A stretch of 64,000 nt of DNA from assembly GCF_058153355.1 (NCBI RefSeq), contig NZ_CM177019.1; one strand, written 5' to 3'. This document shows, one piece after another, positions 45,001 to 51,000 of the stretch (positions within the stretch are counted from its first letter, which is position 1; the number at the start of each line of letters is the position of its first letter). Made by a program: the position numbers.

Positions 45001-48000
45001 AGTTATTAGCAGCAGAACAATGATGTGGTCAGTTAATTAAAGCTGAAAATAAGCTTTTTGCCTGGATTTTTATGGCGGCCTTACGCCGCCGTTGAAACTT
45101 TAATCATCATCCGCCACGCGGATCACCACTTTGCCAAAGTTTTTACCCTTCAGCAGGCCGATAAACGTCTGTGGGGCGTTCTCCAAACCGTTGGTAATTT
45201 GTTCACGATAGTGAATTTTCCCCTCTTTCACCCATTGTCCCATCTCCTGCTGAAACTCATGGATACGGTGACCATAATCCTGACCAATAATAAACCCTTG
45301 CAAGCGAATGCGTTTTTTCAGCACCGTTGCCATCAACAGGGGTAAACGATCCGGACCGGGTGGTAGCTCTGTAGCGTTATAGCTGCTCACTAAGCCGCAG
45401 ACGGGAATGCGCGCGGATGTATTGAGTAACGGTAGCACCGCATCAAATACCTTACCGCCAACGTTTTCATAATAAATATCGATACCTTTTGGGCACGCTT
45501 TCGCCAGTTGCTCGGCAAAATCATCCGCGTGATGGTCAAGGCAGACATCGAAGCCCAACACCTCGGTAGCATGGCGGCATTTTTCCGCGCCACCAGCTAC
45601 CCCCACCACTCTGCAACCTTTAAGTTTGCCGATTTGCCCCACCGTCGCCCCCACTGGTCCTGTCGCTGCAGCTACCACCAACGTTTCGCCTTCTTTGGGC
45701 TGACCGATATCCAGCAGGCCCATATAAGCGGTAAAGCCTGGCATCCCCAGCACACCCAGCGACCACGATGGATTTTGCGGATGATCGCCAAGTTTCACCA
45801 AATCATCACCACTGGATATGTCATAGTCCTGCCATCCACTGTAGCCCAGCACCCAGTCACCAGGCTGGTAATCAGGATGATTAGACTCCACAACACGGCT
45901 CACCGTACCGCCGACCATCACGCCGTCAATGTCAACCGGCGGTGAATAAGATGGCTCATCGCTCATACGTCCACGCATATACGGGTCCAGTGACAAATAA
46001 ACTGTGCGCAGTAATACCTGTCCTTCACCCGGTGTGGCGACATCATCTTCTTCAAGACGAAAATTCTCCGCAACCGGCGCGCCATGCGGACGCGAGGCCA
46101 GAACCCAACGGCGGTTACGCTGCTTTTGTTGCCCCATAATGCTCTCCTGTGCTTTTGGCATGAATCCATCAATAGTAGCAGGCTCGCAGGATTGGTTTTG
46201 TTTGCAGTCGTCACATCCCCTCTGCAACACGCAATAATTTCATCGAGGAATCCGTTGCTTCGGGCTGTTTTCGATAGTATTGATAACGTCATTATCATTA
46301 TTTTATCGAGGCCAGACATGTCCATCCGTTTTGCCCGCAAAGCCGACTGTACTGCCATTGCGGAAATTTATAACCACGCCGTGTTGTATACGGCGGCTAT
46401 CTGGAATGACCAAACGGTGGATGCAGATAACCGCATTGCCTGGTTTGAAGCGCGGACCATAGCAGGTTATCCGGTGCTGGTGAGTGAAGAAGATGGCGTA
46501 GTGACGGGATATGCCTCGTTTGGCGACTGGCGTAGTTTCGATGGTTTTCGCCATACCGTGGAGCATTCGGTTTATGTCCATCCTGATCATCAGGGCAAAG
46601 GTCTTGGGCGTAAATTGTTAAGCCGATTGATTGATGAAGCGCGGGATTGCGGGAAGCATGTTATGGTCGCCGGGATCGAATCGCAAAATCAGGCTTCGCT
46701 GCATCTCCACCAGTCGCTGGGATTTGTCATCACCGCACAAATGCCGCAGGTGGGCACTAAATTTGGGCGCTGGCTGGATCTGACATTTATGCAGTTGCAA
46801 CTCGACGAACGCAGTGAACCGGACGCAATCTGATGAATCAGTCGCTTACCCTTGCCTTTTTGATTGCCGCAGGGATTGGTCTGGTCGTCCAGAACACGCT
46901 AATGGTGCGCATCACCCAGACCTCCTCTACCATTCTCATCGCCATGTTGCTGAACTCACTGGTAGGGATTGTGCTCTTTGTTTCTATTTTATGGTTTAAA
47001 CAAGGCATGGCGGGGTTTGGCGAACTGGTGTCCAGCGTACGCTGGTGGACACTTATACCCGGCTTGCTGGGATCTTTTTTTGTCTTCGCCAGTATCAGCG
47101 GATATCAGAATTTGGGAGCGGCGACAACTATTGCAGTACTGGTCGCCAGCCAGCTAATTGGCGGTCTGGTGCTGGATATCTTCCGCAGTCATGGCGTACC
47201 ACTACGGGCGTTGATCGGCCCAATTTGTGGCGCAATTTTACTTGTGGTTGGTGCCTGGCTGGTGGCCAGGCGCACATTTTAATCAGAGGATGGTGCCGCC
47301 TTTGGTTAACTGTTCGTGGCGCGCTTCCATATCCTTCTTTATGCTTGCGACCGTGATGGGCGATCGCTGTGCGCAGACGCTGCTGCTGGGTGTAGCGATC
47401 TTCCCGACTTAACTCCGCGTCATCGCTCAGGGCGATTAATAATTCGTTCATATGGGCAATGACGCTCTCTTCAATCGCGGCATCCACGCGCGCGATGACT
47501 TCATCCAGATGCGACATACTTTCTCCTTAGCCACTTGTGAAATTTATCGATTCATCCAAATGATATAAGTCTGCGTGGTGCCGTCAAGCCAGTGCGTAAG
47601 ATTTAAAACAGTGAAAACAACAGCGCCACCGGGAAACTCATCGGCCATGTTGCCCCCACCAGAAAGGCGCTTAAGAAACGGATGCGTTTCTTATCGTGAG
47701 AAAGAAACCAGGTGATAAGAAATGCGATTGCTGCCATAACCGCATAAAAAACAAGCATGTGTTGATAGAGAGACATGTACGGGCGTCCAGCCAGATGAAT
47801 AAAACGCGCGCAAATATGCGTCATATCTTGACGTGCATCAAGTTTTTTCACCAGTTTGAGAAAAAATCATCAAACAGCAACTTGCCCTTATCCATCTTCA
47901 GAATGAGTATTATTGCGGATTTTCTTAACCCGTACTATACACATAGGGGCAATGATAAAAGGTGGCAAAAATGAATGTTTCCAGTAGAACTGTAGTACTG

Positions 48001-51000
48001 ATAAATGTCTTTGCTGCTGTTGGTTTGTTTACTCTTATCTCTATGAGATTTGGCTGGTTTATTTGATGTAGTGATTTTGCACGCAGCACGTACTGTCAGA
48101 GAAATCAACTCTCTGACAGTACGCAAGATCTTCTCATACTCTTACGATCTGCAATATTATCCTTAATGCTTAACCATGACGTGGCGGACGACGGTGTAAT
48201 CCTCCAGCCCATAAAGTGACATATCCTTGCCGTAACCAGAAAGTTTCTGCCCACCGTGCGGCATTTCACTTACCAGCATGAAATGGGTATTGACCCAGGT
48301 ACAACCATATTGCAGCCGTGCGCTGACGCGATGCGCCCTGCCCACATCTTTCGTCCATACCGAAGATGCAAGTCCGTACTGGCTGTCATTCGCCCAGTTC
48401 ACCACCTGTTCTTCATTGTCAAAGGCCGTCACGCTCACCACCGGACCAAATACCTCTTTTTGCACGATGGCATCGTCCTGTAACGCGCCAGCCAGCAGCG
48501 TAGGCGCGTAGTAATAACCATTACCCTTGCGCTTTTCACCACCGGTGATCACTTTGATGTGCCCTGTCTCTTTCGCCTCTTCTACCGCCTTGCTGACACG
48601 TTCGAGATGTGCCAGCGAACTTAACGGTCCAAGCTCTGTGGACTCGTCATCCGGCGCACCCGATTTTAACGTTGCCACTGCAGCACCGAGTTTTTCCACC
48701 AGCGTATCGTAAATACCTTTTTGCGCGTAGATCCGACAAGCCGCAGTACAATCCTGTCCGGCATTGTAATAGCCAAAAGTACGAACACCTTCGACCACTG
48801 CTTCAATATCAGCATCATCAAAAACAATCACTGGCGCTTTGCCACCAAGTTCCATATGAGTACGCTTAATAGACGGCGCTGTATGGCTGATGATGTGCTC
48901 GCCGGTGGCGATAGAGCCCGTCAGCGACACCATCCGCACTTTGGGATGTCCGGTCAGCGGATCGCCCACTGTTTTGCCTCTGCCAAACAGCACATTAATC
49001 ACGCCAGCCGGGAAGATATCTTTCGCCAGTTCAGCCAGCTTCAACGCTGTCAGCGGCGTAATTTCTGATGGTTTAAGCACTACGCAGTTCCCTGCCGCCA
49101 GCGCCGGAGCCAGTTTCCACGCGGCCATCATCAGCGGATAATTCCACGGTGCGATAGAAGCCACGACCCCCAACGGATCCCGACGGATCATTGAAGTATG
49201 ACCTTCAAGGTATTCGCCGGCCGCCAGACCATTGAGGCAGCGCGCCGCCCCGGCGAAAAAGCGAAAGACATCGACAATCGCCGGAATTTCATCATTGAAC
49301 GCACTATGCAGCGGTTTGCCACAATTACGGGACTCCAGTTCGGCAAAAACCTGACCATTTTCTTCAATAACATCGGCCAGTTTCAGCAGGCATTCCGCAC
49401 GCGCTTTCGGCGTGGTTTGCCCCCATTCGGCAAATGCTGCATCTGCCGCGCGAACAGCAGCATCCACCTGCTCTGCGGATGCCTCGGCAATCTCCAGTAA
49501 AACGTCCCCCGTTGCCGGATTATAGACAGGCTGTTTTTCCCCTTCGCCGCTAACCAGTTCTCCGTTAATCAGTAACTTATGTTGCATAGCATATTCCTGT
49601 ATCAGTGGTTATTGACCATTGTCGCCTTCGCGGGTTAGCCACCAGGCTCCCAGGATCGGCAAGGTTGTTACCAACATAACCAGCAGTGCCACGACGTTGG
49701 TTACCGGTACATCACGTGGTCGCCCAAGCTGATTGAGCAACCACAACGGTAACGTTCGTTCATGACCTGCCGTAAAGGTCGTCACGATGATTTCATCGAA
49801 CGACAAAGCAAACGCCAGCATTCCTCCTGCCAGAAGCGCCGAACTGAGATTCGGCAACACTACGTAGCGGAAGGTTTGCCAGCCATTGGCCCCAAGATCC
49901 ATTGACGCCTCAACCAGACTCCAGGAGGTGCGGCGAAAACGGGCGATGACATTGTTAAACACCACCACTACGCAAAAAGTCGCATGACCGACCACGATGG
50001 TGAAAAATCCCGGCTCCAGATTGATGGTTTTAAAAGCAGTTAATAGCGCCAGACCAGTGACAATGCCCGGCAGCGCAATGGGCAGCAGCAATAACAATGA
50101 AATGGCGCTTTTACCGAAAAAGTCCCGACGCCACAGCGCAGCAGCGGCCAGTGACCCTAATACCAGCGCAATTAATGTCGCCAGCGCCGCCACTTTAAGT
50201 GACAGTGTCACAGCATCAAGAATATCACTACGCTGTGCTGCCACGCTAAACCAGCGCAGCGTCAGGCCTTGCGGTGGAAAACTAAACGCCGCATCTTCAG
50301 TGTTAAACGCATAGGCGGCGATAATCAGGATGGGGAAATGTAGGAAAACCACGCCGCCCCAAGCCGCCAGTTTGAGGAAAAACGGTGCGCGTTCAGAGTG
50401 CATCGAACGCTCCCAGACGTTTCACGAACGCCAGGTACAGTGCGATGAGAACAATCGGCACCAGGGTGAATGCCGCCGCCATCGGCATATTGCCAATCGC
50501 CCCCTGCTGGGAATAAACCATATTGCCGATAAAATATCCTGGAGGGCCAACCAGCTGCGGAACGATAAAATCGCCCAGTGTGAGTGAAAAGGTAAAGATA
50601 GAGCCAGCGGCAATACCCGGGATCGCCAGCGGCAGCACCACATAGCGAAAGGTTTGCCGTGGACGCGCGCCAAGATCAGCCGACGCCTGCAACAATGACG
50701 GCGGCAAACGCTCAAGCGCCGCCTGCACGGGCAGGATCATGAACGGCAGCCAGATATAGAGAAACACCAGAAAGCGCCCCAGCCCGGAAGTTGACAACGT
50801 GTTACCGCCCACCGCGGGTAATGTAAGGAACGCTGTCAGCAGTGGTTCCAGCCCCAGATGTTGTAAAAACCACTGCGCCACGCCATCTTTTGCCAGCAAT
50901 AATGTCCAGGCATAAGCTTTAACAATGTAGCTTGCCCACATTGGCAGCATCACCGCAATATAGAAGAACGCTTTCATTTTCCCGCTGGTATAGCGCGCCA

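Follow-up and report, generated by a model that had tools for sequence, protein, structure and literature searches.

In Escherichia coli, Rho-dependent transcripts have been described whose precise steady-state 3′ ends lie directly past stable stem-loops that carry no U-tract (Dar and Sorek 2018, PMC6061677). These stems block the exonucleases PNPase and RNase II, and the Rho utilization (rut) sites lie just downstream of them (PMC6061677). It was also proposed that terminators may switch type in evolution through the gain or loss of U residues (PMC6061677). The present analysis concerns a stem-loop of this kind in a stretch of 64,000 nucleotides from contig NZ_CM177019.1 (assembly GCF_058153355.1), hereafter the window. 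The stem-loop occupies 48089-48123 on the plus strand, in the 3′ untranslated region (UTR) of the small gene yncL (47971-48066, +), and it is very probably the 3′-terminal stem-loop of the yncL mRNA. It is an ordinary member of the class described by Dar and Sorek, and its 3′ end is already contained in published data. Coordinates are those of the window unless K-12 is named, and the two systems are converted by K-12 = 1565165 − window.

YncL is a small membrane protein whose induction by heat shock, minimal medium and stationary phase is attributed to Hemm et al. (2008, 2010) in PMC12542507. The protein is reported to be produced, and its overproduction to depolarise the membrane and condense the nucleoid (PMC12542507). 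In Salmonella, the yncL orthologue lies inside a sigma-S-dependent transcript named as a small RNA (sRNA), STnc1110; a translational lacZ fusion to it was expressed, and the Flag-tagged protein was not detected (PMC5437024). STnc1110 has the same promoter motifs and the same patD and ortT neighbours as yncL, and it also bears a stable hairpin, 30 nt past the stop codon. The Salmonella stem differs in being GC-rich and of largely different sequence (TGTTGGCGGGGAGG/CCTCTCCGCCGACA), with a T-run about 10 nt beyond it.

Structure of the stem-loop and the mapped 3′ end of yncL

The core of the element is a perfect 13-bp inverted repeat, composed of CGTACTGTCAGAG (48089-48101), a 9-nt loop and CTCTGACAGTACG (48111-48123). 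An extra A-T pair in the window allele extends the stem to 14 bp, with arms at 48089-48102 and 48110-48123 and a 7-nt loop at 48103-48109. The repeat is separated from the yncL stop codon by 22 nt (48067-48088) and lies 39 nt past the stop codon of the convergent gene patD. Folding of the 43-nt hairpin gave -23.6 kcal/mol on the plus strand and -26.7 kcal/mol on the minus strand, with z-scores of -8.0 and -6.7, respectively, and none of 200 shuffles was as stable. It is the longest perfect short-loop inverted repeat of the window. An earlier note on this DNA, made from the sequence alone, had described a 31-codon reading frame, a GGTGG element, a 22-nt gap and a perfect 13-bp repeat; the sequence bears out all of these, and the shuffles place the repeat beyond chance.

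No T-run was found beside the hairpin on either strand. The tail past the stem, CAAGATCTT, has 3 U in 9 nt, and the stem is preceded by GCACGCAGCA, with no upstream A-tract. A terminator scan of 47500-48400 did not call the hairpin, and its sole terminator-like match lay elsewhere. A canonical intrinsic terminator has a U-tract of about 7-8 nt behind a GC-rich stem and releases the RNA within that tract, and the hairpin does not have this form. The earlier note was right in not regarding it as a classical intrinsic terminator. Canonical intrinsic terminators, including the bidirectional ones of convergent genes, resemble the yncL hairpin in their place right behind a short gene, in stem energy and in their presence in homologous yncL genes, but they differ from it in having a U-tract and in the position of the 3′ end, which is at +3 here. 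A scan of 46500-49000 against Rfam 15, with E values up to 10, returned no relevant match. The hairpin is unannotated, and the literature search turned up no paper that discusses it.

Two main alleles of the hairpin exist in E. coli, with identical stems and a difference in three adjacent loop bases (48108-48110). The allele AAATCAACT, with loop bases ACT, is found in the window and in about 1,000 genomes, and AAATCAGTG, with GTG, in K-12 and about 4,300 genomes. One closing A-T pair is lost in the K-12 allele. The ACT allele is probably ancestral because it is common to other Escherichia species.

The evidence that places an RNA end at this hairpin comes from Term-seq in K-12. An end at 1517039(-) is listed for LB at an optical density (OD) of 0.4 (75,265 reads), for LB at OD 2.0 (536,300 reads) and for M63 (Adams et al. 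2021, PMC7815308 Supplementary file 1). The flanking sequence printed for this end is the hairpin itself (PMC7815308). The end corresponds to 48126(+), so that the steady-state RNA ends in ...CUCUGACAGUACG-CAA, 3 nt beyond the stem, in all three growth conditions; the 3′-end mapping that the earlier note had suggested is thus already available. The sevenfold increase in reads at OD 2.0 fits control by sigma-S. The end had been labelled 'antisense patD' because its distance from the yncL stop codon, 60 nt, exceeds the 50 bp allowed for primary ends, and because it is within 50 bp of patD (PMC7815308). This abundant end is really the 3′ end of yncL, which is the sole correction that the present analysis makes to the record.

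Linkage to yncL and covariation of the helix

Related loci were gathered in three ways, namely by a patD-anchored scan of species-representative genomes, by a YncL profile search of cluster representatives, and with OrtT homologues as anchors. A stable hairpin begins 21-32 nt past the yncL stop codon in several Escherichia species, E. albertii, four Citrobacter species (C. amalonaticus and the C. freundii complex among them), two Salmonella subspecies and Superficieibacter. The orthologous hairpins of Escherichia, Citrobacter, Salmonella and Superficieibacter have folding energies of -18 to -26 kcal/mol, and all are without a U-tract.

The hairpin is linked to yncL and not to patD. In the C. 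freundii complex, yncL converges with an AraC-type gene, and patD lies at a distance of 2.3 kb; in E. albertii an invasin-like gene adjoins yncL; and yncL and patD are separated by an inserted acetyltransferase gene in one O111:H8 strain of E. coli. In each of these cases the hairpin remains by yncL. Where patD stands away from yncL, it is followed by unrelated hairpins or terminators. In E. albertii (loci L093 and L003), patD is unlinked from the yncL-ortT pair and has a canonical terminator of its own, GCTGGAATAT...ATATTCCAGC followed by TATTTTT, and the gene beside yncL is invasin/intimin-like.

Covariation was assessed in an unguided MAFFT alignment of 11 orthologous 3′ regions. Standard pairs fill 87.9% of the cells of the helix, and only 32-49% after a shift of the 3′ partners by 1-3 columns. 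Compensatory changes on both sides, across Escherichia, Citrobacter and Salmonella, were found in 9 of the 15 pairs (U-A to G-C, G-C to U-A and C-G to G-C, for example), and the observed values were reached by none of 500 shuffles. RNAalifold predicted the same helix independently. The helix exists, is unique and covaries. The turnover of the arm sequences while pairing is kept argues for a structural nucleic-acid element and against a sequence-specific protein site. The earlier note had offered two functions for it, a protein-binding site or an RNA processing element. Only the second is upheld, by the Term-seq end 3 nt past the stem and by the covarying helix; the first is not supported, since the arms change between genera with pairing kept, the element stands at gene 3′ ends, and it stays beside yncL where the neighbouring gene is a different one.

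Probable Rho-dependent termination and trimming

Read-through downstream of the hairpin is sensitive to bicyclomycin (BCM). The Rho score peaks at 48412(+), which is K-12 1516753(-), 286 nt downstream on the same strand as yncL and antisense to patD, with a score of 16.6 and p = 5e-21 (PMC7815308 Supplementary file 2). In the DirectRNA-seq data, coverage upstream and downstream was 220 and 9 without BCM and 106 and 72 with BCM (PMC7815308). The stretch immediately behind the stem, at 48124-48167(+), is a conserved C-rich, G-poor tract (GATCTTCTCA ... ATTATCCTTAAT) and is a candidate Rho-loading region, or alternatively a promoter-like block. Over the 60 nt past the stem, C outnumbers G about 2:1 in all 12 orthologues without a U-tract, and the C:G ratio is near or below 1 in the three lineages with hairpins that resemble intrinsic terminators.

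These data suggest the following sequence of events. From a conserved promoter of the sigma-S type, a short monocistronic yncL RNA of about 180 nt, the counterpart of STnc1110, would be made and translated into a single-pass membrane protein of 31 amino acids. RNA polymerase most likely reads through the hairpin, since no U-tract follows it. Rho would load on the untranslated C-rich, G-poor RNA just past the stem and would terminate transcription within a few hundred nucleotides, antisense to patD. The 3′-to-5′ exonucleases PNPase and RNase II would then trim the tail until the 13-14-bp stem stops them, leaving the abundant and sharply defined end 3 nt past the stem. By stopping the exonucleases, the stem would determine where the yncL mRNA ends and how stable it is. 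Two parts of this are inferred, namely an origin of the read-through transcripts at the yncL promoter, and trimming, not termination at the stem, as the source of the mapped end. This specific route, Rho-dependent termination followed by trimming back to the stem, is favoured with moderate confidence.

The comparison with the class of Dar and Sorek supports the same route. The yncL hairpin shares with that class a stable stem-loop, the absence of a U-tract and of an upstream A-tract, an end directly past the stem, BCM-sensitive read-through downstream, and, to a slight degree, an excess of C over G past the stem. It differs in that exonuclease dependence and Rho loading are only predicted here and that the C:G skew is weak. 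The stem is also unlike those of the class in being an unusually long perfect helix that is palindromic between convergent genes. In two distant yncL lineages (L082 and L087), canonical terminators with A-tract, stem and T-tract (AAAAAAGCAGCC...GGCTGCTTTTTT) occupy the same position, and this exchange of terminator type within the YncL family fits the switching proposed by Dar and Sorek.

Several points weigh against this route or against parts of it. The C:G count past the stem in the window is 15:9 in 60 nt, and a fraction of 0.12-0.22 of all window positions is at least as skewed; the excess of C is unremarkable within the window and therefore counts as weak support for a rut site. Calculated from 800-nt windows, the Rho score proves neither an origin of the read-through RNA at the yncL promoter nor the absence of termination at the stem. 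Term-seq cannot separate termination from processing, and the untranslated RNA from the stop codon to the 3′ end is merely 60 nt long. The T6 run about 10 nt past the Salmonella stem means that some intrinsic contribution is possible. In addition, the patD-sense strand forms a helix of about the same stability. Wobbles and mismatches in the helix show no strand preference (7 G-U cells favour the yncL strand and 7 A-C cells the other), and the strand favoured by folding energy varies between species. As the wobble pairs give no strand, synteny and the mapped 3′ end are the grounds for assigning the element to yncL.

Alternative explanations

The stem could act as a leaky, non-canonical intrinsic terminator that halts part of the polymerases while Rho serves as a backup, a short tail then being shortened slightly to give the end at +3. 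The stem matches those of intrinsic terminators in stability, true intrinsic terminators stand at the same place in homologues of other lineages, and a T-run lies near the Salmonella stem. Intermediate cases were explicitly discussed by Dar and Sorek (PMC6061677), and only about 4% of the coverage continues downstream without BCM. The immediate surroundings of the stem fit such a terminator poorly, with 2-3 U in the 9 nt past the stem and no A-tract before it. Hairpins without a U-tract terminate E. coli RNA polymerase poorly, and the terminator scan made no call here. The end lies 3 nt past the stem and not 7-9 nt into a U-tract, and BCM raises read-through strongly. This explanation is considered unlikely.

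An equally doubtful proposal is that the hairpin is a 3′-end element shared by both strands, which would also cap the convergent ydcSTUV-patD mRNA, and that the resulting overlap would cause interference of the excludon type, possibly via RNase III. The fold on the minus strand is equal or better (-26.7 kcal/mol), and its distance of 39 nt from the patD stop codon would suit such a cap. The pair patD-yncL is among the convergent overlapping pairs of ExcludonFinder (PMC12288877), and the level of yncL mRNA is altered in RNase E/III mutants (PMC3082872). Nevertheless, no patD-sense 3′ end near the hairpin is listed in the three Term-seq conditions (PMC7815308). In genomes in which patD is unlinked from yncL, the hairpin stays with yncL and other terminators follow patD, and a stem of 13-14 bp is short for an RNase III substrate. 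A role as patD cap or in an excludon is possible, but the data in hand give it no support; it would add to Rho-dependent termination with trimming and would not exclude it.

A more speculative suggestion, to which a low probability is given, is that the hairpin and the conserved block behind it form a regulatory module that does more than cap the mRNA, as a conditional Rho terminator, an antisense promoter or a dual-function RNA. The block at 48127-48167 consists of GATCTTC(T/C)CA, 16-18 nt and TA(A/T)AT(T/G)ATCCTTAAT, and it is kept in Escherichia, Citrobacter and Salmonella whether or not patD is the neighbour. The arrangement of GATCTTCTCA, 16-18 nt and TATTATCCTTAAT resembles a -35/-10 pair. 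The block may belong to the Rho-loading region, or it may drive transcription of an antisense RNA that has no annotation. The match TTCTCA-18-TATTAT at 48131-48160(+) agrees with a promoter at 9 of 12 positions and would start an RNA antisense to patD. Another promoter-like match, CTGACA-16-CATACT inside the hairpin, was taken as noise, the region having 3 matches where 1.6 are expected by chance.

The module can be imagined in different versions. In the first, it may be a conditional Rho terminator, such that strong induction by sigma-S leads to antisense read-through into patD and to silencing of putrescine catabolism, in the manner of an excludon. In the second, an RNA without annotation may begin at the CCTTAAT junction (48161-48167), with the block as its conserved promoter (-35 TTCTCA, -10 TATTAT). 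In a further variant, the yncL RNA of about 180 nt may be a dual-function RNA and the stem-loop a 3′ end of the sRNA type. The context of this variant is the sRNA STnc1110 in Salmonella and the chimeras of yncL with RprA and KilS in RIL-seq and TRIC-seq.

The reading of the palindrome as a DNA site, either the operator of a dimeric regulator or a cruciform, is very improbable. It is favoured by the perfect palindrome, whose half-sites resemble those of LexA boxes (TACTGT/ACAGTA), with a spacing of 19 nt rather than 8. A LexA box was rejected on this spacing and because the arms are not conserved in Citrobacter or Salmonella. The operator of a dimeric regulator would have conserved half-sites and a regulated promoter nearby, and the palindrome has neither. 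The arms differ between genera with pairing kept, 9 pairs being changed on both sides; those of Salmonella are GC-rich and unrelated, and G-U pairs are tolerated. Furthermore, the palindrome stands at the 3′ ends of two genes with no promoter nearby, it is a single copy with no related sites in the window, and a strong RNA 3′ end lies exactly at the hairpin base.

A dispersed repeat of the repetitive extragenic palindromic (REP) or bacterial interspersed mosaic element (BIME) type, which the earlier note had named as a possible outcome, has nothing in its favour but the palindromic shape and the intergenic position, and it is ruled out by copy number, since the 43-mer, in a sensitive BLAST search of 5,426 E. 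coli genomes, was found at a single locus in each of 5,411. The '2 places per genome' in this search are the two strands of one palindrome. This answers the question of copy number raised by the earlier note; no second copy of the hairpin is present in the window even with 2 mismatches, and Rfam gave no match. REP elements are like the yncL hairpin in being intergenic palindromes able to block 3′ exonucleases, but the yncL hairpin is single copy and unrelated to them in sequence.

The yncL gene, its putative promoter and its neighbours

The open reading frame (ORF) upstream of the hairpin is yncL, an already known and annotated gene. It begins with ATG at 47971, ends with TGA at 48064-48066 and encodes 31 amino acids (MNVSSRTVVLINVFAAVGLFTLISMRFGWFI), a small inner-membrane stress protein. 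Against the NCBIfam equivalog NF000537 (YncL), the protein scored 72.5 bits (E = 1.8e-20; cut-off 35), with a match that spans residues 1-30 of the 30-position model. In more than 5,400 RefSeq genomes of E. coli, the ORF is annotated as yncL, 'stress response membrane protein YncL', between ortT and patD, and Pfam PF28073 is assigned to yncL orthologues on public contigs. The earlier note was accurate in matching the ORF to YncL and in placing it between the two genes, and the translation that it wished to see checked is reported in the literature (PMC12542507). The 641 nt around yncL and the hairpin match 5,415 of 5,426 complete E. coli genomes at 95-99.4% identity.

In K-12 MG1655, yncL is b4598 at 1517099-1517194(-). 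The K-12 locus (NF000537, PF28073) is alike in its position between ortT and patD, in its Shine-Dalgarno element and in its promoter region. It differs from the window in 3 nt of the downstream hairpin loop and in residue 13, which is F in K-12 and V in the window, so that 30 of the 31 residues are identical. The V13 allele is common and is also found in Shigella sonnei and many E. coli. In an alignment of YncL from Escherichia, Citrobacter, Salmonella, Intestinirhabdus and Superficieibacter, 20 of the 31 columns are invariant and both frame and length are kept. The dN/dS ratio against other genera is 0.07-0.25.

The Shine-Dalgarno element GGTGG is at 47961-47965(+), 5 nt 5′ of the ATG, and the region around it, AAAGGTGG, is kept in all close yncL orthologues. 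Farther upstream, a putative -35 element, TTGCGG, is found at 47913-47918(+), 17 nt 5′ of a putative -10 element of the sigma-S type (C then TATACA) at 47935-47941(+), the latter suggested by conservation and by the literature on sigma-S. The -35 region motif TATTGCGGAT is kept upstream of yncL in Escherichia, Citrobacter and Salmonella, and the -10 region AACCCGTACTATAC is nearly invariant across genera. From these motifs, transcription is predicted to start near 47947-47949. Genomic SELEX with RNA polymerase holoenzyme containing sigma-S gave a strong peak, of intensity 28.5, in the spacer between yncL and ydcX (ortT) (PMC5493296). The yncL mRNA has also been reported as a partner of the sRNAs RprA and KilS in RIL-seq and TRIC-seq (PMC8175672; bioRxiv 10.1101/2025.09.11.675593).

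The divergent neighbour of yncL is ortT (47603-47776, -), which encodes an orphan toxin, and the convergent neighbour is patD (48163-49587, -), which encodes gamma-aminobutyraldehyde dehydrogenase. The start codons of yncL and ortT are 192-194 nt apart in E. coli, Citrobacter and Superficieibacter, and the pair is also present in Salmonella, E. albertii and Intestinirhabdus. A weak 'orphan' Term-seq end is listed at K-12 1517357(+), which is 47808(-), with 848 reads in LB at OD 0.4 (Adams et al., PMC7815308). On the strand of ortT and patD, this end precedes the ortT start codon by 32 nt; transcription may stop prematurely there in the ortT leader, or patD read-through that crosses yncL in antisense may end there.

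The CCTTAAT junction, beside the patD stop codon, has received different DNA in different lineages. In the O111:H8 strain of E. coli (locus L096, 3603-4930), an AT-rich gene for a CatB-related O-acetyltransferase lies at the junction with TTAAT on both sides, and in the C. freundii complex (locus L005, 5429-7754) the junction carries a gene for a major facilitator superfamily (MFS) transporter and a gene for an AraC-type regulator. The junction looks like an insertion hot spot.

Distant YncL homologues occur without ortT in other contexts (loci L086/L087 and L088). One of them adjoins a glycoside hydrolase family 15 gene and a gene for the small membrane protein Pmp3, and another lies between thrS and the gene for a YniD-like small protein. 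Genes for small membrane proteins seem to be clustered around these distant homologues.

Significance

The finding has little importance beyond good annotation, and nothing in it should surprise a specialist. One database label should be mended, in that 1517039(-) should be given as the 3′ end of yncL and not as 'antisense to patD'. Tagging or deletion of yncL should spare 48089-48126, because this region probably controls the stability of the mRNA. Strong induction of yncL may drive antisense transcription into patD. The locus is a clean example of a short stress-induced mRNA whose 3′ boundary comes from a stem-loop without a U-tract. Across the yncL family, either such a stem or a canonical intrinsic terminator is found at the same position, which illustrates the terminator switching of Dar and Sorek.

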